DNA of 42,379 nt from Escherichia phage aldrigsur: the sequence record MN850592.1; one strand, 5' to 3'. Each line of letters starts with the position of its first letter. The stretch's first letter is position 1. Under the pieces are notes generated by a model. The model worked only from the letters and a program-made list of their open reading frames with translations. It had not been told where the DNA came from and did not search any database. Positions 2,687 to 33,186 of the stretch are shown here, piece by piece. Both the position numbers and the translations under genes were made by a program.

Positions 2687-5131
2687 TTAAATTCTCCGAA
2701 CTTTGTTGTAGAACTTGATGTAGTAGCCAAGCCCCTGAATGTTCAGGTCGCCTGCCGTAGACGAATCCACGACCATGCTGCTGGACTCCACCTCAAGACC
2801 CATGCGAACCTTCAAGTGCGCACGCTTGGCCAACATCGCAGACCCCAGACCCAGCTCTTTACTGGTATACCGGATAGGGCTGCTGATGATGTTCAGTGCC
2901 GAGTACGCGCCCCGGTCGCTGGCCGTGATGTTGAACAGGCTCGTGTACCGCAACGTGAAGTTGTAGTGCATGATGACCATCTTGTTCACGTCCATGTACG
3001 AGCCGTCCTGATTGAACACACGCGGAGGCGTAGGGCTGAACAGGGCAGTGAATCGCAGGCCCACATACAGTGAGCTGCTGCCGTACGAAGGCTGGAGGTA
3101 CACGCGTCGGTTAGTGGTGTCGATGGACTTAACCCCGACCTCAGCCCCGATGTAGTTGCCAGACGGCACTACGTTCGTCATGAAATCCCAGTTGCCCTCA
3201 GTCTGGTAGCGGTACTGAATAATGTCCCACAGCGCCCTCTGCTCGCCAGTGGCAGCGAACTGAATGTACGAGCTGTCCGTGGCCGGGTTCGTCACAGTCA
3301 TCAACTGGGCGTAGTCAATGGCCGGGAGGAATCGCGCCGGGTCAGTCGGGTCAGGGGAGTCTCGCATGGACAGCGTGAGCAGGTTCATGTGGCCCTGTTG
3401 CTCAACCAAGAGCACCAGAACCTCACGGACGAACCACGCAGCCTGCACAGTCCCGTACACCTCCCAGCGATGCCACGAGGACAGAACCTTCTCGTCACCA
3501 GACCACAGGTACTCGTTCACGTAGAGCGTGGACTTCTCAGTGGTTGAGCCAAACACGACGATGTTGTTCGTGGTGCTGGCAGAGATATACGAGTTGGCCC
3601 CTTCCAGATAGGTCGGCAGGTGGTCGGTTACATCCTGACTCACGTACTGCAAATCCGTGTAGCCGGACGGCAGCATCTCCTTGATGGAGAATGAGCTGTT
3701 CGAGCGCGGGTACGCGTAATACAGGCTGCGGCCAGAGGTGGTCGGTGCTACGCCAGTGTCCATCTGGTACGTCGAGGTCAACACAGCAGTGGCGTTGTTC
3801 GGCGTAAGGATTTGGTTACGTCCGGGGATAACGGCTTGGTGTTCCTCACTGGCCAGAATCAGGTCAGAGTTGAACGGGATGCCATACCGGAACGATGCCC
3901 CGGCGAAGCTGGTTGCGGTGAACTCAATGCGGTCGTCGTCCAGTACCTGCGTCACAGTCGTACGGAAGAAGTTGGTTCTGTCTTCCTTGTTGCTGGAACC
4001 CATGGTAATGTACGGGCCGGAGAACACAATCAGGCGACCTTGGAACGAAGCCAGACCAGTGATACCCACACCATCAGCATCAGTGAATGCCGGGATTGAG
4101 TTGGTCTTGTCGTCGCCAGCCAGTCGGCCCGGCCATGAGCCTTGAGCGAACGTGTGCTGGTTGGTGGTCGAGGTCGTGCTGAATACCAGAGGCATAGTGC
4201 TTGGGTTAATCCCGGTCGGGGAACCCCACGCACCTTTCTCCACCCAGCGCGAGTTGGCGTAATCCCACTGGAAATACTGAGCGAAGCTGTCGTCGCCCAC
4301 GGTCATGATGAAGCCACCAGCCTGAGTCGGCAGACGCGCCGGGAGCTTGGTGGTCAGGTCGACGCGGTGAGTGTTCGACGCAATCGCATAGCTGGAACCA
4401 GTGTTGGTGGAGACGTTCAGGTCAGTGTACGCGGCAGTGGTCTGGAGGTACATGTACGCACCATCCACCTGCACAACCTCCAGCCCGGTAGCGCCGCCAA
4501 TGGCAGCGTCGAGCTGAGACTTCAACTGACCGATGATATATTCCGGCGTAGCCTTACCCGAAGCGCCTGTCTCGTCGGAGTTAGGTGTGGTGTAAGAGGC
4601 TGACACAGCGCCGCCGCTTGTTTCAACGCGAACGGTGTACTGCTTACCGTAGCCTCCGGCCAGCACAAAGTAGTAACCCCGGCGACCCGGATTCATACGC
4701 GTCTCGTTCTCCAGAAGCACGGGCAGCTTGGAGCAGTTGGCAACGTACATGGTGTTGCCTACGGTAGCGAACACGATGTCGTCGGGGTTGTTCGTGACGA
4801 GGTACGAGGACTGGCCCATGAACTGGACAGTCTCCGTCTCGACGATGGCGGTGACATACCCGGTCTTCGTATTCACGATGAACGTGGTGATGCCCCAGCC
4901 TAAGTTAGTGGTAGTGAATCGCAGGTGGCCGAAGTTACCAAGGCTCCAGACGTTCGCGTTAGTGGAATCCACAGTACGGTGCAGTCGGGTGCCGGGGCGT
5001 TTACGCAGGCCACGCACGGTGTCAGAGGTCATGTTGACCTGTTCCTCAACCTGCGATAGCTGGCGGTCAGTATAGACCTGCTGGCTCACGCCGCCGAGGA
5101 TGGATTTATAAGCGCCTTGGTATACTGGCAT
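2687..5131 (-). CDS. Tail tubular protein B (T7 gp12-like), 814 aa
   Basis: Size and position match T7 gp12 (~794 aa); start overlaps upstream stop (TAATG) with GGAGAGGA Shine-Dalgarno. Confidence 0.8.
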   Translation of the reverse strand: MPVYQGAYKSILGGVSQQVYTDRQLSQVEEQVNMTSDTVRGLRKRPGTRLHRTVDSTNANVWSLGNFGHLRFTTTNLGWGITTFIVNTKTGYVTAIVETETVQFMGQSSYLVTNNPDDIVFATVGNTMYVANCSKLPVLLENETRMNPGRRGYYFVLAGGYGKQYTVRVETSGGAVSASYTTPNSDETGASGKATPEYIIGQLKSQLDAAIGGATGLEVVQVDGAYMYLQTTAAYTDLNVSTNTGSSYAIASNTHRVDLTTKLPARLPTQAGGFIMTVGDDSFAQYFQWDYANSRWVEKGAWGSPTGINPSTMPLVFSTTSTTNQHTFAQGSWPGRLAGDDKTNSIPAFTDADGVGITGLASFQGRLIVFSGPYITMGSSNKEDRTNFFRTTVTQVLDDDRIEFTATSFAGASFRYGIPFNSDLILASEEHQAVIPGRNQILTPNNATAVLTSTYQMDTGVAPTTSGRSLYYAYPRSNSSFSIKEMLPSGYTDLQYVSQDVTDHLPTYLEGANSYISASTTNNIVVFGSTTEKSTLYVNEYLWSGDEKVLSSWHRWEVYGTVQAAWFVREVLVLLVEQQGHMNLLTLSMRDSPDPTDPARFLPAIDYAQLMTVTNPATDSSYIQFAATGEQRALWDIIQYRYQTEGNWDFMTNVVPSGNYIGAEVGVKSIDTTNRRVYLQPSYGSSSLYVGLRFTALFSPTPPRVFNQDGSYMDVNKMVIMHYNFTLRYTSLFNITASDRGAYSALNIISSPIRYTSKELGLGSAMLAKRAHLKVRMGLEVESSSMVVDSSTAGDLNIQGLGYYIKFYNKVRRI

Positions 5132-5679
5132 TATCCTCTCCGAGCACTCTCATAGCGCCACCAGCTCTTGCGCTGGCGAGCATTGAATCGACGCTGGCGG
5201 GTATGGATAGACTGGCACTGTTGCAGGGCCATGGCATAACCACCAGTAACACTGGCCGGGGGATTGTCACCCATGTCATCCGAGTACGCGGAGATAGCTG
5301 CTTGATATGCAACGAGTCGTTGTACCGGACTGGGTAGGTCATCCCAGCCTAAATCGTAAGTCACCAATCCCGGAACATCTTCTGTAAAAACAAAGGTTTG
5401 GGAATTAGCGTTGTAAAGATACCCGCCACGCACGATACACTCAAACCCATCAGGGATGAAGCTCAATGCGTCGGCGGGGTATTTGACACGACCATCCGTT
5501 TCGCGGGGGATGGTGATTCGAATATTGTTGAACCACCAACCATCAGTGAGAACTTCTTCCTGTGCGATACCAATCTTGTCAAGTGCAAGGGTAACGGACG
5601 GGTTTCGAATCTCGGTGGATGATACAGTGTGTTCAGACAATGCTCGAAGAACAATGTTGACTGCTTCGAGTAGAGTCAT
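5131..5679 (-). CDS. Tail tubular protein A (T7 gp11-like), 182 aa
   Basis: Size/position immediately downstream of capsid gene; GGAGG SD upstream of ATG. Confidence 0.75.
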   Translation of the reverse strand: MTLLEAVNIVLRALSEHTVSSTEIRNPSVTLALDKIGIAQEEVLTDGWWFNNIRITIPRETDGRVKYPADALSFIPDGFECIVRGGYLYNANSQTFVFTEDVPGLVTYDLGWDDLPSPVQRLVAYQAAISAYSDDMGDNPPASVTGGYAMALQQCQSIHTRQRRFNARQRKSWWRYESARRG

Positions 5680-5702
5680 AAAACCTCCCAGTGATAATCA
5701 TA

Positions 5703-5725
5703 GAAGCCCCTCAGAGAAGGGCTTC
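5703..5725 (-). terminator. Stem-loop 10 nt downstream of the major capsid gene stop (7-bp GC-rich stem, 9-nt loop); candidate terminator or RNA-stabilising hairpin
   Basis: Inverted repeat GAAGCCC / GGGCTTC seen directly; same relative position as T7 T-phi after gene 10; no clean U tract. Confidence 0.3.
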
Positions 5726-5735
5726 GAGTTTACCA

Positions 5736-6728
5736 TTAGGACTCAGTGGTAACTACAGCAACCACGTCTGGACGACGCTGACCCACGGTGTACATGTGGA
5801 AGCTATCCAGAACGTTGGTCAGTTCACGTTCGTCATCCCATACGCGGTTGAACAGCGGCTGGGCTTCGACAGTGACCAGAGCCAGAGACGGGTCGAAGAT
5901 AATCATCTTGCGCTGAATCTCGTCGGCGGTGACGTTGAAGTCAGGGCCGAGGATGTGGTCGGTGATTGCCGCCTGCGGGAACGCGTTGCTCTCGATGATA
6001 CGGATACCGTTGACGTACGCAACACGACGCATTGCGAAGTCGTTGACACCACGACCACCAGTGAACTCAACGTTCATCAGTTTCTTGTGCTCCAGCAGAA
6101 TGCTGAACCACGCCGGGTCAATCAGCGTAACCAGTCGGCCAAGGTCGGCATCGCGACGGATGAACGCCTCGATAGCTTTCTTGTGGCCGTGTACCAGCGC
6201 AGACGCATCATCTTCCTCAGATGCCACGGTGCCAGTCAGAGTGACCTGCTCCTTGATACCTGCATTGAACGCGCCAGCCAGAGAAGCCGGAGGCACGAAG
6301 TCGGCAGACTTCTGGAGCTGGATGACGTGCGCTTGGTCGAACGCCTTCGCCTGTGCAGTACCCATGTTACGGGTCAGCTCAGCGCGGAAGTCCGGCGCAG
6401 TCCAGTCGTCCTGATAGTCAATCGGGATACGGATGTAAGACACGGTATCCACAGTGACAATCAGTTTCTCAGAGCGAACTGGCTGGTTGTCCAGCGCCTC
6501 GCCAGAGCGACGACCCTTAACGGTCACAGAGCCGAGACGGTCGCCACGCCAAGTGTTGGACTGGTTAGCCACAGACTTGAAGTTGGTCAGACCGGAACGG
6601 AAGATGGAGTTGTAGATGAACTGGGTTTGAACATCACGGTCATACACCTCAAGGTGAATGTCGTTATCAGAGTTCGCGCCACCCCAGTGTGGACGGAACT
6701 GATTCGGGGTATAAGCGTTATCAGCCAT
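5736..6728 (-). CDS. Major capsid protein, 330 aa
   Basis: Size and position between scaffold and tail tubular genes; long intact ORF. Confidence 0.85.
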   Translation of the reverse strand: MADNAYTPNQFRPHWGGANSDNDIHLEVYDRDVQTQFIYNSIFRSGLTNFKSVANQSNTWRGDRLGSVTVKGRRSGEALDNQPVRSEKLIVTVDTVSYIRIPIDYQDDWTAPDFRAELTRNMGTAQAKAFDQAHVIQLQKSADFVPPASLAGAFNAGIKEQVTLTGTVASEEDDASALVHGHKKAIEAFIRRDADLGRLVTLIDPAWFSILLEHKKLMNVEFTGGRGVNDFAMRRVAYVNGIRIIESNAFPQAAITDHILGPDFNVTADEIQRKMIIFDPSLALVTVEAQPLFNRVWDDERELTNVLDSFHMYTVGQRRPDVVAVVTTES

Positions 6729-23879: not shown

Positions 23880-24316
23880 TCGTTATCCCACTCTGGTATG
23901 TACTGAATCTTCTTCTTCATCTTCACGCTGGCTACAACTTGCAGCACACGGACAGTACCTCCGTTGCGCTCAGCCAAACGCTCAGCTTCTTCCCGCGCAT
24001 CCAGTTCAGTGATGTGCTCAACCTTCGGCGGTGCATTGCTGCCTTCAACCAAGCACATGTAGCGGCCCCGGTCTTCTGGCTTGCGGCTGACCAGACTGGT
24101 GTTTTCCTCCAGCCAGTCAGACTTGTAGTGGCTGATGTCCGGCTGTGCATTCAGCCGCTCACCAATCCAGCTCACGATGTAGCGGGTCTCACCACTGCGC
24201 TCCCATGCTCGGCGGTCAGGGTTAACCCATGCGATGATACCCAGCTTACCTGACCGGGTGCCAGTGTCGTTGTGACCTACAATCTCGTCACCGATTTTGT
24301 ACTTAGGCTTTACCAT
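23876..24316 (-). CDS. Hypothetical protein, 146 aa
   Basis: ORF with coupled start/stop. Confidence 0.5.
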   Translation of the reverse strand: MVKPKYKIGDEIVGHNDTGTRSGKLGIIAWVNPDRRAWERSGETRYIVSWIGERLNAQPDISHYKSDWLEENTSLVSRKPEDRGRYMCLVEGSNAPPKVEHITELDAREEAERLAERNGGTVRVLQVVASVKMKKKIQYIPEWDNE

Positions 24317-24513
24317 CTAATCCACCTCCGGCTCTGACCTACGCTCAGGCTTACGTGCATCAAGCCCCAGCCTACCAGCATACCGAGCAGCGTACCCACC
24401 GAAGAAGTAGCCGACTCACCGATGGCGGGTATCAGTGCGAACACTGCCAGCGCCATCCATAAAGCTCCCCAAATAATAACGAGGAACAGGAACAACAATA
24501 TAACTCGGAACAT
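24310..24513 (-). CDS. Small membrane protein (two TM helices), 67 aa
   Basis: Strongly hydrophobic sequence. Confidence 0.45.
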   Translation of the reverse strand: MFRVILLFLFLVIIWGALWMALAVFALIPAIGESATSSVGTLLGMLVGWGLMHVSLSVGQSRRWIRW

Positions 24514-24532
24514 ATTTCATCCTCACGTTGGC

Positions 24533-24551
24533 CAATATAGACACCTTCATA
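24533..24551 (-). promoter_or_regulatory. Copy of 19-bp conserved box (TATGAAGGTGTCTATATTG), 20 nt upstream of the 24513 start; candidate promoter
   Basis: 17/19 match to boxes at 10508..10526 and 31190..31208; preceded by hairpin 24552..24576. Confidence 0.3.
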
Positions 24552-24576
24552 ATGCCTGCTAAATAATAACAGGCAT
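24552..24576 (-). terminator. Stem-loop (7-bp stem ATGCCTG/CAGGCAT, 11-nt AT-rich loop) in intergenic gap
   Basis: Inverted repeat seen directly; lies between stop at 24587 and next start at 24513. Confidence 0.3.
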
Positions 24577-24586
24577 GAGTAGATGA

Positions 24587-24757
24587 CTACGCCGGAATAA
24601 CATTACGCACTATGCGTTGCAGGTCTTCGAGTTTACTCTCGGCTTCCCACTTTGTATCACGCACAGCCAAAGGTTTATTCGGCTGGAGTTTATTAACAAC
24701 CCACCAGAATAATCCGGTGGGTGATTTGACTACGGCCAGCTTAGTGTCGCGTTGCAT
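24587..24757 (-). CDS. Hypothetical protein, ~56 aa
   Basis: ATG at 24757 with GGAG SD (ORF track 24587..24778 from GTG). Confidence 0.35.
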   Translation of the reverse strand: MQRDTKLAVVKSPTGLFWWVVNKLQPNKPLAVRDTKWEAESKLEDLQRIVRNVIPA

Positions 24758-25253
24758 TCTTCGACTCCAGCATTGCACGAATCATCTGCTCAACGTTGCC
24801 CTTGATAGTACGCATCGTTGTGTCAATGAACTCGCCCACGAACAGCAGACCCAGCGCCGTCTCGCTAATATCCCCCGGCACATTGGAGCACGCCATGTAC
24901 CAGTCGTGATACTTCTCAGCAATATCAACCGAGGACATAGCCTGCGCTGCCATCTTACCAGCCAGACGCAGCTCGACCTGCAACTCCTCGTCACCGTCTG
25001 CCTGCGCAGCTCGCATGTTCATGCCGATGATGACGCTGACGTTGCGTGCCAGCAGCGCACCAGTACGAGTGGCCGGAACAATGTCCAGCATACCCTCGCG
25101 CCCGGCACGCACCGCGCCGATGTAACTTTGCTTCGGCAGGTAGCCGCCCTTGAACTCGACCAGCTCACTGAGCATAGGCTCGCTGTCGATGTGTGCAGCC
25201 AGCAGCTTAATCACTTCCAACTGCTTCGGATTAAAAGTTTTGAAGTCAATCAT
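24741..25253 (-). CDS. Hypothetical protein, 170 aa
   Basis: Intact ORF with ATGA overlap. Confidence 0.5.
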   Translation of the reverse strand: MIDFKTFNPKQLEVIKLLAAHIDSEPMLSELVEFKGGYLPKQSYIGAVRAGREGMLDIVPATRTGALLARNVSVIIGMNMRAAQADGDEELQVELRLAGKMAAQAMSSVDIAEKYHDWYMACSNVPGDISETALGLLFVGEFIDTTMRTIKGNVEQMIRAMLESKNATRH

Positions 25254-25549
25254 TTGTTATCCTCTTTCAGAATACGGACGGTGAACTCGTCATCTTCGTA
25301 CGCCTGCCACTCACGCTCAGGCCCATGCCCTAACTTGGTTACGACCAGTCGGCTGCCGTCATACTCCACGGCACCGATGCGCTGGATGTAACCGCCGTAT
25401 GCTACCACGTAGTCACCCAGCTTAAGCTCCTGCGTTTTCTTCTCGACGTACTTGAACGGCGAGTCGTCATGCACAGGGGCTGGCGGTGCGCCAAAGGCAT
25501 CGACCAACCAACGCTGTAGCTTGGCTACGTTATCTTTCCACTTGCTCAT
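25250..25549 (-). CDS. Hypothetical protein, ~99 aa
   Basis: ATG at 25549 with GAGAGGTG SD (ORF track 25250..25576). Confidence 0.45.
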   Translation of the reverse strand: MSKWKDNVAKLQRWLVDAFGAPPAPVHDDSPFKYVEKKTQELKLGDYVVAYGGYIQRIGAVEYDGSRLVVTKLGHGPEREWQAYEDDEFTVRILKEDNK

Positions 25550-25551
25550 AC

Positions 25552-25836
25552 TCACACCTCTCGTTGTTCCAGCCATACCTGCGCGGCTGCATACGCATCT
25601 TCATAACTTACGAAGCCGTCGAACTCGTCGCCGTTCGGTGCGAGGAAGCACCAGTCGAGGTGTTCATGTGGGTTGCCCCGCGAGAATATCACGCAAGGAA
25701 ATACGCCGCCGACTGAATGCCCACGCAGACCGCCGTTGCCAGCACAGTGACCGAGCGTTGCGGCTACCCCACGCAGATGCTCAGCTTCACGGATTGCGCC
25801 AGCCTGTTCGATAATACTTTCAGATGCCAGTACCAT
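25552..25836 (-). CDS. Hypothetical His/Cys-containing protein, ~94 aa
   Basis: ATG at 25836 with AGGGGG SD; ORF track lists longer 25552..26070 version. Confidence 0.45.
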   Translation of the reverse strand: MVLASESIIEQAGAIREAEHLRGVAATLGHCAGNGGLRGHSVGGVFPCVIFSRGNPHEHLDWCFLAPNGDEFDGFVSYEDAYAAAQVWLEQREV

Positions 25837-25838
25837 AG

Positions 25839-25991
25839 TTACCCCCTGATTAAATAGTATTCGTGGTGCATGTAGTGACCGCCGAGATACACCGCCCGGC
25901 TCATTAGGTTCGGGTTGCTCGCCCCACCCAGTGCGCAGTACCCTGCGTAACTTATCTGGTTGGCGTGCGCATTGTATGTGCTGCCACTCAT
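25839..25991 (-). CDS. Hypothetical protein, ~50 aa
   Basis: ATG at 25991 with GAGGTG SD. Confidence 0.3.
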   Translation of the reverse strand: MSGSTYNAHANQISYAGYCALGGASNPNLMSRAVYLGGHYMHHEYYLIRG

Positions 25992-26047
25992 GTTCACCTC
26001 TCTCGTTTGATAATGACACAGCCCCCGCAAGCAGAGGCTGTAGCTTA

Positions 26048-26281
26048 TCACTCGACCAGCTCGAAGCCATCGCCCAGTGTTGTCACCACGTTCTCACCGA
26101 TGTCATCCACCAACCACAGCTCGTCATGCAGGCAGACTTCCAAGCCGTCCGGGTCAACCTCACCCGGCTCAGGGCGACGGGCATCGTACACCTTGTCCAC
26201 TGTCAGGTCACGGGCCACAAACTTACCATGATGGGAGGTGTGCTTCCCGGTGTACAGAACCTTCACATTCGCAGCCATCAC
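26048..26281 (-). CDS. Small acidic protein, paralog family 2 (copy c), 77 aa
   Basis: Shares V(R/A)D..VYDA..GE(L/V)DP.G.E..VDD pattern with 26526..26771. Confidence 0.5.
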   Translation of the reverse strand: MMAANVKVLYTGKHTSHHGKFVARDLTVDKVYDARRPEPGEVDPDGLEVCLHDELWLVDDIGENVVTTLGDGFELVE

Positions 26282-26523
26282 AGCACCTCAAACCAGTCGT
26301 TGTAATCAGAGACAAAGAAGTCACACGGATGACCGCTCTCGTCCAGTACAGCTACAGTCTCGTAGCCTGCCACGTCATCAGCACCCTTGCCGTACACTGC
26401 GGCCAGCTTAGGGAACGCCTTGACCAGATTCTCACCCTCAGCAACCAGCACTGCCGGGTACTCATTGCCCACGGTGAACCCGGTGCGGCGCTTGACTACC
26501 TTCAAAGTTACTTTCTTACCCAT
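26278..26523 (-). CDS. Small acidic protein, paralog family 2 (copy b), 81 aa
   Basis: MGKKVTLKVV N-terminus parallels MSKKVRIEII of copy a; ATG at 26523. Confidence 0.5.
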   Translation of the reverse strand: MGKKVTLKVVKRRTGFTVGNEYPAVLVAEGENLVKAFPKLAAVYGKGADDVAGYETVAVLDESGHPCDFFVSDYNDWFEVL

Positions 26524-26525
26524 GA

Positions 26526-26771
26526 TTATTCCCCCAGTTCTTTGATGGTGATGTCTTTGTGGGCTGACACGAACGCCAGACATTCATCGCCTTCATCATC
26601 AACGAAGGAGTAGCCCGGCTCGTCCAGCTCATAGCCTACCGGGTCAAGCTCACCAGCTTCCAACAGCTCAGCGTCATACACCTGCCCAATGGTGGTGTCA
26701 CGCACAGCGCCAGAGAACCAGTGCGGCTGGGATACGTGGCCGATGATTTCAATGCGTACTTTCTTGCTCAT
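26526..26771 (-). CDS. Small acidic protein, paralog family 2 (copy a), 81 aa
   Basis: Tandem with copies b and c, same size class. Confidence 0.5.
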   Translation of the reverse strand: MSKKVRIEIIGHVSQPHWFSGAVRDTTIGQVYDAELLEAGELDPVGYELDEPGYSFVDDEGDECLAFVSAHKDITIKELGE

Positions 26772-26773
26772 GA

Positions 26774-27109
26774 TTATTCCTCGTTGTCAATACCAAACAG
26801 ATACATCTCACCCTCGTAGATGGGAGTGAGAATCTTGAGCCACGTCTGGATAGCCAGCGGCGCGGCACTGTAATGCAGCTCGTTCAGCAGGTCGATGATG
26901 AATGGCCTGCGCCCGGCGTACGCCTTGAAGCGTTCGATGATTTGCTCGTCGCTCGCCTCACTCGTCAGCATCTGCTGCCCTAAGATTTCAATCTGGTCAA
27001 TGACGACCAGCCCTTCCTGACCATCGGGCAGGCGGTACAACAGTACCGCCACGTCTTGCCCATCCGTAATGTCAGGCCCACGGAATACCTTGACCGGATG
27101 CAACGCCAT
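26774..27109 (-). CDS. Hypothetical protein, 111 aa
   Basis: Intact ORF, tightly coupled. Confidence 0.45.
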   Translation of the reverse strand: MALHPVKVFRGPDITDGQDVAVLLYRLPDGQEGLVVIDQIEILGQQMLTSEASDEQIIERFKAYAGRRPFIIDLLNELHYSAAPLAIQTWLKILTPIYEGEMYLFGIDNEE

Positions 27110-27111
27110 GC

Positions 27112-27396
27112 TTAGACCTCGAAGCTACCGACTTCTTCGTAGCCCTTGGCAGGCATGTCAACCGCAGCAGTAGCGTTCAGCGAACCACCGTGCAGCAGGA
27201 AGGCCAGCTCACCCATGCGTTCGATGTCAGCTTGCAGCGACGGCAGCGCAGCCACAGCATCATCAACCGTGTTCAGCTTCGGCACTTCCTTACAGCCGGA
27301 AATGCAGAGTGCGAAGTTGCCTTCTTCGAAGCCGTCACCAACAACAGCCACGATGTCTTTCTCTTGTGCGGAGTAGTATGCAGTTACTTTAGCCAT
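27112..27396 (-). CDS. Small acidic protein, paralog family 1, ~94 aa
   Basis: ATG at 27396 preceded by conserved upstream module (hairpin, GGCAATCATGCC box, CTGAGGG SD). Confidence 0.5.
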   Translation of the reverse strand: MAKVTAYYSAQEKDIVAVVGDGFEEGNFALCISGCKEVPKLNTVDDAVAALPSLQADIERMGELAFLLHGGSLNATAAVDMPAKGYEEVGSFEV

Positions 27397-27464
27397 GGTA
27401 AAACCCTCAGTTAGTTGTGGCATGATTGCCCTACAGCCCACCGCTATGGATGGGCTGACAGAAA

Positions 27465-27701
27465 TCACGCAGTCTTGATGACTTCGCCTTCATCCAGTGC
27501 GGCCTGCACTGCGTCGGCGTACTCACCACCGGACAGCAGCACGTAGCTCACGCTGTCAAAGTGCAGTTCCTCACCGAACTGTTCGAAAGCAAAGGTCTTG
27601 CTGGTGTACACTGCCACCTGCTGGCGGTCGTCAGCGAATTGCGCATAGGTTACTTCACCATCGTTCGGGTCAGTGAAGCGTACCAGTTCAAACTTAGCCA
27701 T
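27465..27701 (-). CDS. Small acidic protein, 78 aa
   Basis: ATG with AGGAG SD. Confidence 0.5.
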   Translation of the reverse strand: MAKFELVRFTDPNDGEVTYAQFADDRQQVAVYTSKTFAFEQFGEELHFDSVSYVLLSGGEYADAVQAALDEGEVIKTA

Positions 27702-27737
27702 GTTGTTTCTCCTGTTACTGGTGGGTTAGTGGTCGGC

Positions 27738-28013
27738 TTACTCGAAGTCAGCCGCGTCTACGTTGTCAGCTTCAAAGCTGGTGATGAAGCGAGGCTCCAG
27801 TGCATTCAGCTTTTCAACCGACAGCTTGCCACCCTGAATGGCAATCAGCATACCGCCGAGGTCTTCCAGCGCCTCGCGCACCTCGCCAATCACCTCGTCA
27901 TGGCTTGCGTCTGGCTTCGGCTGCACACCCAGTGAAGGTGCATTGTCAACAGTCTCGCCAACGATGAAAGCCAGACCGCCGTTGTTCAGGGAAAACACAT
28001 TGATAGTGGACAT
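27738..28013 (-). CDS. Small acidic protein, paralog family 1, 91 aa
   Basis: Conserved upstream module; C-terminus ...DAADFE. Confidence 0.5.
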   Translation of the reverse strand: MSTINVFSLNNGGLAFIVGETVDNAPSLGVQPKPDASHDEVIGEVREALEDLGGMLIAIQGGKLSVEKLNALEPRFITSFEADNVDAADFE

Positions 28014-28078
28014 AATAAATCCTCAGTAGATTGGGGCATGATTGCCGCACTGCCCCGTCGCAACGAGGCAGTAAGGTA

Positions 28079-28420
28079 TCACGCAGAGAAGTCTACGTCA
28101 TCTTCATCGCCGTACACTTTCAGCTCGGTGACAGACACGTCTGCACCCAGCTTCTCACGGTCGATGAAAGGCACGCCGTTCATCATGCCGAACAGTTCCA
28201 GCGGCAGGCCAGAAGCTGCGAACCCAGCGAAGCCTTCGTCAGCGTCGAAGTGCGCCACGATGTCCTCGGCAGAGTCGCCGTCGCGGTTGCGGCCTGCAAT
28301 CAGGTAGCCCTCGTCGTCGGAGGTGAATGCCACCCACTCAGCGGTACGCGCTTCTTCCGGTACGTCTGCGCCGAATGCGGAAGCTGCGATGTTGGTCAGG
28401 ATTACAAGTTTGATGCTCAT
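28079..28420 (-). CDS. Small acidic protein, paralog family 1, 113 aa
   Basis: Conserved upstream module; segment SAEDIVAHFDADEGFAGFA resembles SAQEKDIVAVVGDGFEEGNFA of the 27112..27396 product. Confidence 0.5.
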   Translation of the reverse strand: MSIKLVILTNIAASAFGADVPEEARTAEWVAFTSDDEGYLIAGRNRDGDSAEDIVAHFDADEGFAGFAASGLPLELFGMMNGVPFIDREKLGADVSVTELKVYGDEDDVDFSA

Positions 28421-28491
28421 ATTAAAACCCTCAGATTGAGTAAGGCATTATTGCCACGCTGCACCCTCGCAAGGATGCAGCAGGACAACGC

Positions 28492-28773
28492 TTACTCGTC
28501 GTCTACTTCTGCTTCGAACGTGCCGATTTCTTCAATCGTAAGGTCGTCGCCGTGGCGCAGTCGCAGGTCGTCTTCGTCCTGCTCAGCGAGCATGATGATG
28601 AACTCGTGCGGCAGCGGGATACCCTGCAACGTTTCGAGGATGGCTACGGCCTCAGTCGGCTCGCCTTCTTCACGGACGTGGTGCAGGTACTGGCCTTCGT
28701 TCAGGGAAACAGCGAAGCCATACAGTTCGCCAGCTTTCTTGGTCACGAATGCAGTTACAGTTTTGATAGTCAT
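28492..28773 (-). CDS. Small acidic protein, paralog family 1, ~93 aa
   Basis: ATG at 28773 with GGAG SD and conserved upstream module; ORF-track 178-aa version rejected as N-terminal over-extension. Confidence 0.5.
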   Translation of the reverse strand: MTIKTVTAFVTKKAGELYGFAVSLNEGQYLHHVREEGEPTEAVAILETLQGIPLPHEFIIMLAEQDEDDLRLRHGDDLTIEEIGTFEAEVDDE

Positions 28774-28849
28774 GGTTAATACTCCGAATAGGTTGGGGCA
28801 GAATTGCCATAAAGCCAGCGCCTTGACACTGGCTTGAGTCAATCCCGGC

Positions 28850-29128
28850 TTACGCCACTTCGAAGTCTTCCTGACGACCCCAGCGAACGGTGCCATCCCA
28901 TTCGGTGCCTTGGTCTTCATCGACCAGCCACAGGAAGTCGCCGGACTCGTCCAGAATGTCACGGCTCTGAGCAAAGTGCGGCAGGTTCTCCGCGCCTTCC
29001 TTGATGTCGATGCGGCCAGTGTCGTCAATGGTCGCTACGATGGTGCCAGTAAGCTGGCCGCCCATCAGTGCTGCCGGGAAAGAGTGCGCCAGCGGTTTGG
29101 TGCGAGTGTCTACAGCTTTAAAAGTCAT
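28850..29128 (-). CDS. Small acidic protein, probable paralog family 1, 92 aa
   Basis: MTFKAV start and acidic C-terminus ...EDFEVA; preceded by hairpin 29164..29186. Confidence 0.45.
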   Translation of the reverse strand: MTFKAVDTRTKPLAHSFPAALMGGQLTGTIVATIDDTGRIDIKEGAENLPHFAQSRDILDESGDFLWLVDEDQGTEWDGTVRWGRQEDFEVA

Positions 29129-29193
29129 GCTATGCCCCTTTGGGTTGGTGTGTGGTTACAATTCAGGCCACTCAGTGAATGGCCTGTCAGTAA

Positions 29194-29724
29194 TCACGCA
29201 GCTTGCTTAGCCTTGCGCAGTGCATCCAGCACGTTCTGAGGAACAACAACCTTGTTCGCGTCTTCGTCCTTCCCTTCGTGGCGCAGTTCGTTCGCCTTGT
29301 TCAGCGCCTTCTCAGCTTTGGCAATCAGCTTTTCGAGCGCATCTTGCAGGTCGAAGCCTTCGAACGCCTGCTCAGGTTTCAGGCTCCACCACATAGTGGC
29401 TTTGGCCGTGTCAATGTTCGCCTTAATGTACTCAGCGCCCTGCCAGCCGATAAAGCCCTGTTTCCCGCCGTTCTCACCGATAATCAGGCCGCCGAACTTG
29501 ACGAACCAGTCTACCAGCGCCTTACCACGGATACCCTGACCGAGCTGATTCACGAAGGATTCAGCACGAGTGTAGTCGCCGTGATGGTAAGCGTGCAGGA
29601 TGATGCCGACCGCAACGTTCTGAATGTCGCTACGGAGTGAGTGCGCCTTCTTGACGGTAGACTCAATGGCCTTGTCCAGAGCGGCAGCGTCTTTGAAGCT
29701 GGTGTATTTGATTGCAGTTGTCAT
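29194..29724 (-). CDS. Hypothetical early protein, ~176 aa
   Basis: ATG at 29724 with AAGGGG SD (ORF track starts at GTG 29757). Confidence 0.5.
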   Translation of the reverse strand: MTTAIKYTSFKDAAALDKAIESTVKKAHSLRSDIQNVAVGIILHAYHHGDYTRAESFVNQLGQGIRGKALVDWFVKFGGLIIGENGGKQGFIGWQGAEYIKANIDTAKATMWWSLKPEQAFEGFDLQDALEKLIAKAEKALNKANELRHEGKDEDANKVVVPQNVLDALRKAKQAA

Positions 29725-29785
29725 GGTAGTACCCCTTGTCAGGTTGGTTGATTTCACATAGCGCCTCGCAAGACGCTATAGGCTA

Positions 29786-29860
29786 TCAGCCACGGCGACG
29801 GCTCAGTCGCTGGTCAATGACCCAGCAGGCCGCCGCTACTACACACAGTGCGGTAAACAT
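29786..29860 (-). CDS. Very small hydrophobic peptide (24 aa, MFTALCVVAAACWVIDQRLSRRRG)
   Basis: ATG 1 nt after upstream stop (TAACATG), GGAGG 5 nt upstream; below ORF-track size cutoff. Confidence 0.3.
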   Translation of the reverse strand: MFTALCVVAAACWVIDQRLSRRRG

Positions 29861-29861
29861 G

Positions 29862-30254
29862 TTACGCCTCCACTACCCAAAATTGTTCACCATCGTAAGT
29901 CCAAGCGGTGTGCTGCCCGGCTTCCATTTCGGCCTCTGTCTTGCTGACGAACTTGCCAGCAGGCTTGCCCGGATATGGTGAATCCATGAAGATTGCATCA
30001 TCATCTTTGGTCACTACCATGATGCAGTCCTGTTCGAATGCTTTACAGAACAGCTTAACAGCCTGCCTGATTTCGTAGATTCCATCGACAGGAAAGACCA
30101 TGCTTAACTCGTACGCATTGTCGAACTTGCCTGTCAGTGTGACCGGAACCACTCCGAACATATCCTGCACCGTTCGCAGTGCCTTGCAATGAAGCGCCAG
30201 ATTAACACATTCAGCGTTGCCCTGACGATATGCGCTTGCATAGATACGGTACAT
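29862..30254 (-). CDS. First early gene, hypothetical protein, 130 aa
   Basis: First ORF downstream of the tandem promoters; GGAGA SD. Confidence 0.55.
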   Translation of the reverse strand: MYRIYASAYRQGNAECVNLALHCKALRTVQDMFGVVPVTLTGKFDNAYELSMVFPVDGIYEIRQAVKLFCKAFEQDCIMVVTKDDDAIFMDSPYPGKPAGKFVSKTEAEMEAGQHTAWTYDGEQFWVVEA

Positions 30255-30711
30255 AGTTATTTCTCCAGTTGTTGGCTATTTTCAGGTGGATAGTGAACCC
30301 ATTGTGACGCGCCGTACATGTTGCACTAAGTGGCATTGATTGGCTTGTCGGATTCACTACCCTGAAAAATCGCCCCGCCCATTTCGCGCCGTGGATATTG
30401 TCTGCATCCACTCTCAGGAGTCCTCCAGCAGTCCGGCTCACCGTTACCAGCTTGCCTACCTACCCGCTTCACTCCGCGCCTTATAAGACGTTTGGGATTT
30501 TACTGATACTGCGCTGTGTCTATCGCGCTTCTCCGTTCCCTTGCATCAGGCACTACCCCTACGGCGTTAGCATTGTTGCGATACCGTTGCTTTTCAGCGA
30601 TGCCTCTCACCAGTTCCTAGCTGCGCCGGATACCCATGAGACCGTGACACTACGTGGCCAGTTTACGTTCACTCAGAGCAGGTTGTTTTGCAACCTTTCA
30701 ACTCGGTGCTG

Positions 30712-30740
30712 ATTACATCACATCGTATTCAGCGTGTCAA
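30712..30740 (-). promoter_or_regulatory. Sigma70-type early promoter A (TTGACA-17-TGTAAT)
   Basis: Minus strand: -35 TTGACA at 30740..30735, 17-nt spacer, -10 TGTAAT at 30717..30712. Confidence 0.55.
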
Positions 30741-30791
30741 CTACTTTTTACTTCTGACTGACTGGCTTGCTGCCCTGTCAATCTGGTGTGC

Positions 30792-30820
30792 ATTACAGCA
30801 TACTCATTTCATCCTGTCAA
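30792..30820 (-). promoter_or_regulatory. Sigma70-type early promoter B (TTGACA-17-TGTAAT)
   Basis: -35 at 30820..30815, -10 at 30797..30792; shares TATGCTGTAATGC context with promoter C. Confidence 0.55.
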
Positions 30821-30928
30821 CCGATTTAATCAGCGCCCGTTCTGAGATAATTAAACCGTACCAGTTCGCCTACGTGTGTTTTAACGTCTTTATCAATGAC
30901 TGTTTAGCTTGCTGGCTGACGTGGAAGC

Positions 30929-30957
30929 ATTACAGCATAGTGAGCTTGCCTTGTCAA
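30929..30957 (-). promoter_or_regulatory. Sigma70-type early promoter C (TTGACA-17-TGTAAT)
   Basis: -35 at 30957..30952, -10 at 30934..30929. Confidence 0.55.
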
Positions 30958-31034
30958 CACACCAGATTGTTAAAGAGCAGTGTTACCGTCCTACACCGTC
31001 CAACACGTTGACGCTGTGTTGTCCGGCGAGATGA

Positions 31035-31063
31035 ATTACAGCAAATAGCGAATACCTTTGCAA
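31035..31063 (-). promoter_or_regulatory. Sigma70-type early promoter D (TTGCAA-17-TGTAAT)
   Basis: -35 TTGCAA at 31063..31058, -10 at 31040..31035; weaker -35. Confidence 0.4.
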
Positions 31064-31189
31064 GTATTATTTTCAAGAAATGTGATAAGTGTATGTAATC
31101 ATTAGGATTAAAGTTTGATTAGATAATCATAACACTGGATAGAATACCGTTATCAGATAGGTTATAAGTTACTGTAATCATTAGATAAT

Positions 31190-31226
31190 TATGAAAGTGT
31201 CTATAGTGATATAGTATCGCTAGATA
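31190..31226 (+). promoter_or_regulatory. Inverted copy of the composite element (TATGAAAGTGTCTATAGTG + TGATAtagTATC palindrome) at the boundary of the AT-rich and T-depleted regions
   Basis: Same composite as minus-strand 10491..10526, here on plus strand. Confidence 0.35.
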
Positions 31227-31230
31227 CGCA

Positions 31231-31620
31231 GAGCGAGCGCGGCGCAGCCGAAACAAGCGAGCGCCGAACGGATGACGGATGGCAGACCGTAGGACTGACA
31301 GACGGCAGACAGTGAAGGCAGTAGGACAGTAACAGCAGGTAGCAGAGCATGACGCGCAGAGCTGGCAGGCGCAGACAGTAGACCAGCACACCACACAGCA
31401 CCACGCCGCACACCGCTACACACCAGCACCACGAAAAGAGACAGATACCCGCACGACCACGCGCAGCACACAGCACCACACAGCCAGCGCAGAGCGTCCC
31501 CAATAGGACAGCACCACACCGCCACCGATAGCCCACACAGCAGGCACACAGCCAGCCAGCAGGACAGCACCACGCGGCGAGTGATGAAACGCGACACGCA
31601 CGAGCTATACCGCACGCAGG
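31231..31620. repeat. Strand-asymmetric block (plus strand ~5% T) with degenerate short repeats (ACAGCACCAC x4, GACAG-type); candidate terminal-repeat/packaging region
   Basis: Composition counted directly; lies between last late gene (stop 31810) and early promoters, where genome ends of T7-like phages map. Confidence 0.4.
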
Positions 31621-31809
31621 CAATCCTCTTGACGCGCCGCGCAACGCACGCGAGACAATATCGCGCACGTCGCGAGGCTAATCCGCGCACACGTCATGGG
31701 GGTACGCGCGGTCATTTGGGTCGAGGGAGGGGCAACCATAAACATGCAATTTTCAAGCCGGGGGTATTGCTCCACACGGCCTGTTCAATGCTCCAGCTTT
31801 CGATAGCCC

Positions 31810-32729: not shown

Positions 32730-33186
32730 CTTTCACTTTCCTTTTCCACGGAGATGGTACAAACCACATGACTAAACCAAGGATACATGTAAGGCCCATG
32801 CCAAAAGCCCACAGGAGACTGCGTGGGTCGCTCTGTGAGACGATTACTGTGCGAGCCTGTACGTTTCCTTGGGTCATTTGCGACCCCTGCTTAGAAGCGT
32901 TTACAGAGCCTCCTGTAACGTCCTTGACGGAAGTGCCATTCGAACCCTGTTTAGCGGTATCCACTTTCGCGTTACCTGATACGTCACCGACCTTTGTTTC
33001 GTCGGACTGTTTCGCAGTCACACCGATACCTTGCTTCGTGTTCTCTGCACCGACTTGGGCCGTGAGTTCCGGCTTGTTGGGAGAGACAGCCGAAGTTACA
33101 GCAGACAGTGCGCTAGTTGCGGAGCAGCCCGTCAATGTCAGTGACAATGAGAGGACTGCCCCGGCCATTAGCCGAGACAGTTTCAT
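32698..33186 (-). CDS. Lipoprotein with C-terminal TM helix; unimolecular-spanin-like, 162 aa
   Basis: Signal peptide with lipobox LTLTGC, Gly/Ser/Thr/Lys-rich periplasmic region, C-terminal LLWAFGMGLTCILGLVMWFV followed by KRKVKDD; strong AAGGAG SD. Confidence 0.5.
   Translation of the reverse strand: MKLSRLMAGAVLSLSLTLTGCSATSALSAVTSAVSPNKPELTAQVGAENTKQGIGVTAKQSDETKVGDVSGNAKVDTAKQGSNGTSVKDVTGGSVNASKQGSQMTQGNVQARTVIVSQSDPRSLLWAFGMGLTCILGLVMWFVPSPWKRKVKDDGSKEGANS

Follow-up and report, generated by a model that had tools for sequence, protein, structure and literature searches.

Our analysis indicates that the short hairpins lying between the early genes of Escherichia phage aldrigsur, a T7-relative coliphage of the genus Bonnellvirus, probably form the upper stems of T7-type processing signals for the host RNase III. 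The elements are most likely ordinary RNA-processing signals and not a new loop-specific protein-binding motif. In the window, that is, the whole stretch of 42,379 nt analysed (MN850592.1), we found seven composite stem-loop sites between 26005 and 29795, plus one at 24535-24590 and another, in the late region, at 5686-5739 (Table 1). The papers on the genus Bonnellvirus that we consulted make no mention of RNase, hairpins or terminators.

As read from the sequence, three tandem promoter-like sites (30712..30957) would drive an early polycistronic transcript holding the hairpins. They went unlisted by our promoter consensus scanner, which accepts only A as the second base of the -10 hexamer.

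Table 1. Predicted composite stem-loops and associated features of the window (scores in bits, by model; E-values are rough)
Feature	Coordinates	Strand	Upper hairpin or sequence	Context and lower part	Scores
Site A	29743..29795	-	29757-29780: UAUAGCGUCU-UGCG-AGGCGCUAUG	3' of the small ORF downstream of the SAMase gene; lower stem UGG.UGAU..C / G..AUCA.CCA, UGA stop codon within	R2 15.6, E about 0.01
Site C	29144..29203	-	29164-29186: CAGGCCAUUC-ACU-GAGUGGCCUG	internal loop 3x4 (UGA/AAUU); lower stem GUG.UUAC/GUAA.CAC, overlapping UGA stop codon; predicted cut between 29161 and 29160, following GGCCUG-AAU (T7 register)	R2 55.1; R3 30.4, E 1.7e-4
Site B	28792..28853	-	28812-28835: AAGCCAGUGU-CAAG-GCGCUGGCUU	T7-like internal-loop strands GACUC ... 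UAUG either side of upper hairpin; predicted cut between UAU and GGCAAU (28809 and 28808)	R2 49.8; R3 25.2, E 0.003
Site D	28439..28495	-	28457-28482: UGCUGCAUCCU-UGCG-AGGGUGCAGCG	UUGCG hairpin; nearly continuous lower helix GAGUAAG.CGUUGU.CC / GG..AUAAUG.CUUACUC, UAA stop codon within	R1 42.7; R2 61.7; R3 no match
Site E	28030..28088	-	28048-28073: UACUGCCUCGU-UGCG-ACGGGGCAGUG	UUGCG hairpin; lower stem GCGUGAU.CC / GG..AUCAUGC, UGA stop codon within	R3 no match
Site F	27414..27474	-	27434-27457: CAGCCCAUC-CAUAGC-GGUGGGCUG	lower stem GCGUGAUUUCU / AGG.GCAAUCAUGC	R3 17.3, E 0.21 (borderline)
Site G	26005..26057	-	26017-26042: UACAGCCUCUG-CUUG-CGGGGGCUGUG	lower stem UGAUAAG / C.AUUAUCA, UGA stop codon within	R2 14.2; R3 20.6, E 0.034
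Site H	24535..24590	-	ACUC-AUGCCUGUUA-UUAUU-UAGCAGGCAU-UAUGAAGG	outside the initial four; T7-like internal loop; UAG stop codon in lower stem	R3 27.1, E 0.001
Late-region site	5686..5739	-	UAAUGGUAA-ACUC-GAAGCCCUUC-UCU-GAGGGGCUUC-UAUGA-UUAUCACU	outside the initial four; between 330-aa and 182-aa ORFs; UAA stop codon in lower stem	R3 36.1, E 8e-6
GGCAAUNNUGCC copy	28797..28808	-	GGCAAUUCUGCC		
Other GGCAAUNNUGCC copies	28444-28455, 28035-28046, 27419-27430	-			
Tandem promoter-like sites	30957-30929, 30820-30792, 30740-30712	-	TTGACA-N17-TGTAAT		

Composite stem-loops in the early region

The initial annotation had described at least four early hairpins with CGCAA (UUGCG in the minus-sense mRNA) in a common loop. 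All four are present, with minus-sense TTGCG at the apex of each predicted hairpin (26026-30, 28059-63, 28468-72 and 29767-71). The common loop itself, U(UGCG)A, holds at sites A, D and E and not at site G, the fourth hairpin of that set, where UUGCG is out of register, spanning the loop, G(CUUG)C, and the 3' arm. Moreover, the family is bigger than the four, since three further early intergenic hairpins (sites C, B and F) carry other loops. TTGCG is rarer than expected in the window (65 found vs 114 expected, 30 of the 65 on the minus strand), and its presence at the tips of four of the seven early intergenic hairpins is therefore not a chance placement; the sites being paralogous repeats (alignment A1), however, the four copies are not independent.

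At all seven early sites, the hairpin forms the top of a composite stem-loop about 18-25 bp long. The lower stem, of 7-11 bp, pairs the end of the upstream gene (last codons and stop codon) with sequence 3' to the hairpin, and is separated by a small, usually asymmetric internal loop from an upper stem of 9-12 bp, with the RNase III proximal box (N, A-U or U-A, G-C, in that order) at its base and a stable loop, often UNCG, as its cap. The stems of the four hairpins first described, given as 5-9 bp, actually measure 10-11 bp when G.U pairs are counted. RNase III had been excluded on the grounds that the stems were too short; this was wrong because the lower stems extend the helices to about two turns, which is the substrate length of the E. 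coli enzyme (PMC1540722), and the agreement with T7 sites in sequence, structure and proximal-box rules also counters the exclusion.

Fold z-scores of the seven early sites range from -2.4 to -3.8. The lower-stem energy was clearly better than that of shuffled flanks at only four of the seven window sites (at site D, better than 199 of 200 shuffles) and, overall, at 6 of 15 sites tested (p <= 0.035). The minus-sense RNA alone can form the G.U pairs, which makes the structures specific to the mRNA strand.

Covariation in relatives and resemblance to phage T7

We compared the window with 14 relatives (15 genomes in total). Across 51 aligned Bonnellvirus sites, of which 30 are distinct, pairing holds in 95.5% of cells, against 34-47% in slid controls, with double changes in seven of the eight upper-helix pairs. 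A plain MAFFT alignment (A4) of seven Bonnellvirus and five T7 early sites on a single two-helix structure gave 92.6% of cells paired (slid controls, 34-44%) and compensatory changes in 11 of 18 pairs. In the relatives the stems covary, whereas the loop motif drifts between UGCG, UACG and UUCAACGA. Site A orthologues show compensatory changes in both stems under the loops U-UGCG-A, C-UGCG-G and C-UACG-G. Four relatives have swapped the site D loop for UUCAACGA with the stem preserved, site E has compensatory stem changes in BHUENT7, HHU8, Lidtsur and J8-65, site C shows covariation in A4, and a paralogue of site G with a CGUGC loop occurs in seven relatives. The lower stem is invariant between sites E and F, and this pair therefore gives no covariation signal.

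The closest known system is the set of T7 RNase III signals (early R0.3, R0.5, R1, R1.1 and R1.3; later R4.7, R18.5 and others). The T7-only model (R3), built from seven T7 sites and searched against the window, had as its six top matches the late site, its best in the whole window, followed by C, H, B, G and F, all six on the transcribed strand. The same search, at E <= 10, did not find the UGCG-loop sites A, D and E, which are tied to the family by paralogy with F, B and C, as well as by helix length and proximal box. In the reciprocal search of T7, the four best matches of a Bonnellvirus-only covariance model were R1, R0.5, R1.1 and R18.5, with R0.3 sixth.

The likeness extends to the sequences. 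T7 R1 reads CAGGUCAUC-UGCG-GGUGGCCUG and the J8-65 site CAGGCCAUC-UGCG-GGUGGCCUG, while T7 R1.1 reads AAGGUCAUUC..GAGUGGCCUU; the upper stem of site C is near-identical to both T7 signals, and that of site F may be compared with R1. As in T7, a two-helix hairpin with an internal loop occupies intercistronic gaps of a host-RNAP early transcript, upper stems of 9-10 bp contain G.U pairs above a stem base of the form (A/C)AG...CU(U/G), ACUC/UAUG(A) strands form the internal loop (sites B, H and the late site), and a stop codon lies within the lower stem, as GAGUGA does in R0.5. On the other hand, the sites are denser here, eight occupying about 5.3 kb, which approaches one for each small gene, compared with five in about 7 kb in T7; the phage belongs to a different genus and subfamily, and its sites are predicted whereas those of T7 are mapped. 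Sites D, E and F differ from T7 sites in their smaller internal loops and longer, near-continuous helices. The UGCG-loop sites A, D and E are the least T7-like of the predicted sites, and their small internal loops (1x1 or 1x2) could give a cleavage pattern different from that of T7. Site A is the weakest member, its lower stem being fragmented in addition to the missed T7-only match and an unusual proximal-box spacing.

Proximal box and predicted cut

RNase III is known to require G-C at pb1 and A-U or U-A at pb2 of the proximal box, G-C or C-G blocking binding (PMC1540722). This is the arrangement we observed in every aligned site (pb1 GC in 29; pb2 AU in 15 and UA in 14), pb2 being A-U in all 12 rows of A4. 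At 45 of 47 distinct sites, 7-8 bp (6 bp for site A) separate the triplet from the loop above it. Sites C and H have distal-box UA/UG pairs, which A, D and E lack; at site H, the U-A/U.G pairs just under the loop-closing pair take the distal-box positions of T7 R1.1.

The T7 cut coordinates of eight sites fall exactly 3 nt past the upper stem. Likewise, in 49 of 49 copies from 15 genomes, the hairpin-adjacent GGCAAU begins exactly 3 nt downstream of the 3' partner of pb3. It opens GGCAAUNNUGCC, the 3' strand of the lower stem at four sites here and without counterpart in T7, of which the window holds four exact copies, all on the minus strand and all in the early region. This repeat folds as a 5'-terminal GGCA-N4-UGCC hairpin with an energy no better than that of shuffles.

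By analogy with T7, the helix of about two turns would be the binding target of RNase III, which would make a single cut in the 3' strand of the internal loop, 3 nt from the base of the upper stem. This would leave the upstream mRNA ending in a hairpin that blocks 3'-5' exonucleases, and the downstream cistron would be freed with a new 5' end, which at four sites is predicted to start with GGCAAUNNUGCC. Internal loops have indeed been found to lead to single RNase III cuts leaving protective 3' hairpins (PMC4858673, PMC1540722, PMC3867540). The UGCG tetraloop would serve fast folding and hairpin stability and would not be a recognition element; E. coli RNase III makes no strict demand on tetraloop sequence (PMC1540722).

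Alternative readings and other phage hairpins

We consider it unlikely that the hairpins are intercistronic stabilisers or insulators uncut by RNase III, which would block 3'-5' exonucleases after cuts elsewhere (e.g., by RNase E) or insulate the translation of neighbouring cistrons. The conserved lower stems would then be left unexplained, as would the fixed A-U/U-A and G-C proximal-box pairs at a constant distance from the loop, the T7-like ACUC/UAUG strands at B, H and the late site, and the near-identity to mapped T7 sites. Such a role would nevertheless suit very stable hairpins with UNCG or CUUG caps directly after stop codons, and the failure of the T7-only model to detect A, D and E; furthermore, a terminating ribosome would unwind lower stems that overlap stop codons.

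A role at the level of DNA or transcription, as intrinsic or factor-dependent terminators, phage-RNAP promoters or early-gene recombination cassettes, appears quite improbable. Synteny breakpoints among relatives cluster at the sites and in phage mellemsur a hairpin chimeric between C and F marks the exact position of a five-gene deletion, from which it follows that the sites do serve as recombination joints. Recombination is however to be expected as a by-product wherever sequence is repeated and leaves the covariation unexplained, and both the G.U pairs and the strand-specific scores point to a constraint on RNA. As the initial annotation had noted, U tracts for intrinsic termination are lacking, with no T-run after any hairpin. 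Our scan classed none of the hairpin sites as promoter-like, site H doing no more than overlap two weak matches of chance level (24534-24567), and GGCAAUNNUGCC, being confined to the early region, is not a general phage promoter.

Of the earlier proposals, the category of processing or stability elements stands, whereas it is very improbable that a phage or host protein binds the UUGCG loop sequence-specifically, with an operator role in translation or an effect on stability. In favour of such binding, U(UGCG)A is the cap seen most often in the genus (32 of 88 instances, distributed over four stem types), and T7 R1 has a UGCG loop as well. Against it, orthologous loops change at sites A and D with stems and flanks preserved, unrelated loops are found in over half of the family, the loop shared by D and E can be explained by duplication, and UGCG and UACG both belong to the UNCG class of stable tetraloops, which suggests selection for stability.

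The RNase III-type elements also share features with hairpins of phage T4. Promoter-early stem-loop cassettes (PeSLs) of T4 reportedly bound shuffled early genes, and the elements described here are likewise repeated and intergenic, at boundaries where relatives have gained, lost or replaced genes. They differ in holding no promoter and in being constrained as RNA structure, recombination looking like a side effect. The C(UUCG)G hairpins of T4 intercistronic regions are an example of stable-tetraloop (UNCG, CUUG or GNRA) hairpins. As with these, stable tetraloops cap intercistronic phage mRNA hairpins here, UGCG and UACG following the UNCG pattern and site G being CUUG, although the loop only caps a larger RNase III-type structure. 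Unlike in C(UUCG)G, the loop-closing pair in the window is U-A and not C-G. A C-G closing pair gives UNCG loops extra stability, and we found it in altidsur, HHU8, Kc261, RZ4, Lidtsur and J8-65.

Composite stem-loops behind the early genes

The initial annotation had singled out hairpins of the early region that share a UUGCG loop. We found CGCAA, which reads UUGCG in the mRNA sense, at 26026-30, 28059-63, 28468-72 and 29767-71, in each case at the apex of a predicted hairpin. Since the genome holds fewer copies of this pentamer than expected (65 observed, 114 expected), these four apical copies are not a chance placement. The shared loop held for three hairpins, which carry U(UGCG)A, but not for the one at 26017-26042, whose loop is G(CUUG)C and in which UUGCG spans the loop and the 3′ arm. 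Likewise, all four hairpins are present but the family is larger, with three more members (loops ACU, CAAG and CAUAGC) behind other early genes. The stems, previously put at 5-9 bp, are 10-11 bp long when G.U pairs are counted, and these pairs are possible only in the minus-sense RNA, the plus-sense forms being weaker or shorter.

Bonnellvirus comprises T7-related podophages of enterobacteria. Between 26000 and 30000, the window shares 98% identity with Escherichia phage altidsur and 80-88% with other phages of the genus. All genes of the window lie on the minus strand. From the promoter side downward, the early region holds three promoter-like sites, the gene for a SAMase and roughly twelve small genes without an assigned function. 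The promoter-like sites have a perfect -35 and an identical -10 hexamer, are spaced by ~80-140 nt and recall the T7 promoters A1-A3; our consensus scanner omitted them because of its -10 hexamer rule. A leader of ~446 nt (30255-30700, minus strand) devoid of a convincing ORF separates them from the SAMase gene. Its predicted fold reaches -153 kcal/mol (z = -3.2), and it matched neither Rfam nor either of our two RNase III models. Every stem-loop site lies between same-strand ORFs, 0-15 nt past a stop codon and 25-50 nt ahead of the next start.

We folded the whole intergenic region of each site. In every fold, sequence directly 3′ of the hairpin pairs with the final codons of the upstream gene, including its stop codon; examples are GCGUGAU/AUCAUGC at E and F, GAGUAAG/CUUACUC at D and UGAUAAG/CAUUAUCA at G. 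The composite consists of a lower stem of 7-11 or more bp, a small internal loop, an upper stem of 9-12 bp and the apical loop, ~18-25 bp in total, with fold z-scores of -2.4 to -3.8 at the early sites. As the hairpins are only the tops of these structures, the earlier exclusion of RNase III on account of short stems does not hold. The internal loop is 3x4 at site C, about 2-4 x 3-5 nt at B, H and the late site, where its size varies with the fold and its strands are ACUC/UAUG like those of T7, and only 1x1 to 2x2 at D, E and F. The conserved motif GGCAAUNNUGCC, which forms the 3′ strand of the lower stem, occurs four times, always on the minus strand of the early region. In a flank-swap/shuffle test, the lower-stem energy stood out clearly in 6 of 15 sites (A, D, E and F of the window and two in relatives); the test was uninformative for C, B and G because their GC-rich flanks pair by chance.

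Stem-loop sites and promoter-like sites of the window, with matches to the model built from T7 sites only
Feature	Coordinates	Strand	T7-only model	Remark
Promoter-like sites (three, tandem)	30957-30712	-		TTGACA-N17-TGTAAT, read by eye
Site A	29743-29795	-	not found	early
Site C	29144-29203	-	E 1.7e-4	early
Site B	28792-28853	-	E 3e-3	early
Site D	28439-28495	-	not found	early
Site E	28030-28088	-	not found	early
Site F	27414-27474	-	E 0.21	early
Site G	26005-26057	-	E 0.03	early
Site H	24535-24590	-	E 1e-3	early or middle
Late site	5686-5739	-	36 bits, E 8e-6	best in window

Conservation in Bonnellvirus and likeness to T7 sites

We compared the early regions of 14 relatives. The hairpins recur there at orthologous positions and show compensatory changes. 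At site A, UAUAGC/GCUAUG is replaced in some phages by UAAUGC/GCAUUG, and the closing pair changes from U-A to C-G; at site E, CUGCCUCG/CGGGGCAG alternates with UUGCCUCC/GGGGGCAA, and at site F, CAGCCCAUC/GGUGGGCUG with CUGCCCUUG/CGAGGGCAG. In the lower stem of D, relatives display the series G-C, G.U, A-U. A covariance model built from E and F recovered D, C and B (E 1e-10 to 1e-4) and, weakly, G and A. When 51 Bonnellvirus sites (30 distinct) were aligned, 95.5% of the cells were paired, against 34-47% in slid controls, and both sides had changed in seven of the eight upper-helix pairs.

We also folded the T7 intergenic regions that hold the early RNase III sites. Their architecture is that of the Bonnellvirus sites, with a striking similarity in sequence. 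The hairpin of T7 R1 is CAGGUCAUC-UGCG-GGUGGCCUG, and phage J8-65 has CAGGCCAUC-UGCG-GGUGGCCUG; T7 R1.1 reads AAGGUCAUUC-GCAA-GAGUGGCCUU and site C CAGGCCAUUC-ACU-GAGUGGCCUG; T7 has ACUC-AAGG...CCUU-UAUGA where site B has GACUC-AAGC...GCUU-UAUGG. The lower stem of T7 R0.5 likewise contains the upstream stop codon (GAGUGA). When seven Bonnellvirus C-type sites and five T7 sites were aligned with plain MAFFT, a single two-helix structure fitted the alignment, with 92.6% of the cells paired (slid controls, 34-44%) and compensatory changes in 11 of 18 pairs, including six of the eight in the lower helix.

The four best matches of a Bonnellvirus-only model in the T7 genome were R1, R0.5, R1.1 and R18.5, with R0.3 in sixth place. 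Conversely, a model made only from seven T7 sites had nine matches across the whole window, and its six best matches all lay on the transcribed strand (see table). As the late site is the best of these, T7-type sites are not confined to the early region. A BLAST "distant" search with a 66-nt site as query was too insensitive for T7-like phages.

The late site, UAAUGGUAA-ACUC-GAAGCCCUUC-UCU-GAGGGGCUUC-UAUGA-UUAUCACU, lies between a 330-aa ORF (5736..6728) and a 182-aa ORF (5131..5679), with a UAA stop within its lower stem. Site H, an eighth early or middle site, has a T7-like internal loop (ACUC/UAUGA) and carries U-A/U.G pairs just under the loop-closing pair, at the distal-box positions. It is kept in all relatives with compensatory changes (AUGCCUGUUA/UAGCAGGCAU vs AUGCCAGUUA/UAGCUGGCAU).

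The T7 records NC_001604 and V01146 carry no RNase III features, and cut coordinates reportedly given by Dunn & Studier 1983 were used instead. Eight of the ten cuts fall exactly 3 nt past the last pair of the canonical upper stem (cut registers UAU/G and AAU/A), which supports these coordinates. The R6.5 and R13 positions lacked the structure and R3.8 was misaligned; all three were dropped.

Probable RNase III processing and competing readings

Substrates of E. coli RNase III typically span two helical turns and are cut at least 11 bp from the loop; internal loops confine the cut to one strand, leaving a 3′ hairpin that protects against exonucleases.(PMC1540722) Recognition involves a proximal box, with G-C at position pb1 and A-U or U-A at pb2, where G-C or C-G blocks binding, and a distal box of UA/UG pairs near the loop.(PMC1540722) At all seven early sites, an upper stem of 10-11 bp and 8-19 lower pairs, separated by an internal loop, offer a helix of about two turns (~20 bp, coaxial stacking allowed). 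At the base of the upper stem, the 29 scored rows of the Bonnellvirus alignment have G-C at pb1 throughout and A-U (15) or U-A (14) at pb2; all 12 rows of the joint alignment with T7 have A-U at pb2. As in T7, 45 of 47 distinct sites carry the triplet N-(A/U)-G at 7-8 bp below the loop, the distance being 6 bp at site A. Distal-box pairs are present at C and H, in part at F (U.G), and absent from A, D, E and B; T7 R1 and R0.3 also depart from this box. GGCAAU starts exactly 3 nt past the partner of pb3, the third proximal-box pair, in all 49 hairpin-adjacent copies, and therefore a cut in the T7 register would fall immediately 5′ of GGCAAU. At B, D, E and F, the predicted cut directly precedes GGCAAU; at C, it follows GGCCUGAAU.

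Given their anatomy, covariation, strand specificity, similarity to T7 and proximal-box pairs, the Bonnellvirus elements are probably T7-type processing signals for the host RNase III. Cleavage would then occur at the predicted positions, which can be checked through end-mapping, and the retained 3′ hairpin may stabilise the upstream mRNA, by analogy with T7, for which such processing and stabilisation have been described.(PMC3867540, PMC4858673) Processing by RNase III would account for the conserved GGCAAUNNUGCC as well as for the module boundaries of the variable early genes, and T7-type signals, including near-identical upper stems and proximal-box pairs, would reach beyond the T7 subfamily. 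No new mechanism is revealed: the elements are new members of a well-known kind, described neither in Rfam nor in the papers examined on the genus. Rfam gave no match at gathering score in the whole window, and only two sub-threshold chance matches by E-value in 25900-31200. Our literature search found no RNase III sites described for Bonnellvirus, SP6-like or phiKMV-like phages, and the papers examined on Bonnellvirus do not mention RNA processing. The elements form an unannotated class of regulatory element in a little-studied coliphage genus, whose records give just "hypothetical proteins" in this region.

The U(UGCG)A sites A, D and E are the least T7-like members: they escape the T7-only model, have small internal loops and lack a UA/UG distal box; at site A, moreover, the lower stem is broken. 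What places them in the family is their clear paralogy with F, B and C, together with helix length and the proximal box. Cleavage of these three sites might involve both strands or be less efficient. The loop of A, D and E is UGCG, and that of G is CUUG. We take UGCG and UACG to fit the UNCG pattern of stable tetraloops, and CUUG to be another stable class. The UNCG tetraloop is classically closed by C-G; the closing pair of UGCG in the window is U-A, and extra tetraloop stability is uncertain.

A more elaborate possibility, which we put forward tentatively, is that the elements are two-ended protection modules for early mRNAs and also recombination joints for early-gene swaps between phages. 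RNase III would cut exactly 5′ of GGCAAUNNUGCC, leaving the upstream mRNA with the UNCG-capped hairpin as its 3′ end. Once released, the 3′ strand of the lower stem would form a new, flush 5′-terminal GGCA-N4-UGCC hairpin, which could shield the new 5′-monophosphate from 5′-end-dependent RNase E, so that each small early gene would yield a doubly protected monocistronic mRNA. The 5′-terminal GGCAAUNNUGCC hairpin was the predicted minimum-energy structure in all four cases, at energies no better than those of shuffles.

Compared with T7-type processing signals, hairpins that stabilise or insulate the transcript without being cleaved are an improbable reading. Elements acting at the DNA level or in transcription are more improbable still, as no T-run follows any hairpin (here the initial annotation was right) and no site was flagged as promoter-like. 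The 3′ flanks (UGUGAAAU, AAUUGUAA, UAUGGCAA, UGGCAAUA, CGGCAAUC, UAGGGCAA and UCAUUAUC) contain no U-run, and an intrinsic-terminator scan of 24000-31300 called none of the hairpins. A sigma-70 scan called no site as an internal promoter, with only two chance-level matches overlapping site H. TTGCGA-N14-AATNAT, considered by eye as a promoter, has too short a spacing, and GGCAAUNNUGCC was rejected as a phage-RNAP promoter or sigma-54 site, being restricted to the early region and wrongly spaced.

The initial annotation had also envisaged an RNA-binding protein and had proposed covariation in related genomes as a check. The stems are indeed kept with compensatory changes, but the loop motif is not conserved: orthologues of site A have U-UGCG-A, C-UGCG-G or C-UACG-G, and the loop of site D becomes UUCAACGA in four phages. 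Across the family we counted 19 loop types, U(UGCG)A being the commonest cap (32 of 88 instances), and we did not observe a loop both conserved across orthologues and common to all members, as an operator would require. This variability contradicts a loop-specific protein site, which we regard as scarcely credible.

Recombination at the sites and further hairpins

Homology breakpoints among the relatives cluster at A, B, C, E, F and G. Recombination there looks like a consequence of repeated sequence rather than a selected function. In mellemsur (L008 1790-1850), exactly where five early genes are missing, we found a chimeric hairpin with the 5′ half of site C and the 3′ half of site F, joined within CCAU(U/C)CA, and a mismatch in its hybrid stem. 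Recombination between two RNase III-type sites therefore produced this deletion. In forsur (L010 4200-4290), an internal in-frame deletion has cut the 113-aa gene between D and E to a 26-codon mini-ORF, with both flanking sites intact.

Further minus-strand hairpins were observed. At 24664-24722 (also L013 527-570 and L014 1796-1825), the strong hairpin ACCCACCGGA-UUAU-UCUGGUGGGU, of 10 bp, precedes UGUUAAUAAA and another hairpin; the two hairpins fall within a small ORF annotated in altidsur. The first has no proximal-box triplet, and its stem is lengthened to 13-20 bp in J8-65 and Lidtsur. This hairpin may be the terminator of early transcription or another signal. At 31640-31711 (and L001 8463-8525), repeated hairpins of very high G+C content, CGCGACGUGCGCGA...UCGCGUGCGUUGCG, with a 14-bp stem adjoin the repeat_region annotated in altidsur and probably belong to the genome end or terminal repeat. 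Finally, a 12-bp hairpin at 33155-33181, ACUGUCUCGGCU-AAU-GGCCGGGGCAGU (-18.8 kcal/mol), lies shortly past the start of a lysis-cassette ORF and is kept in mellemsur, forsur and ROV85.
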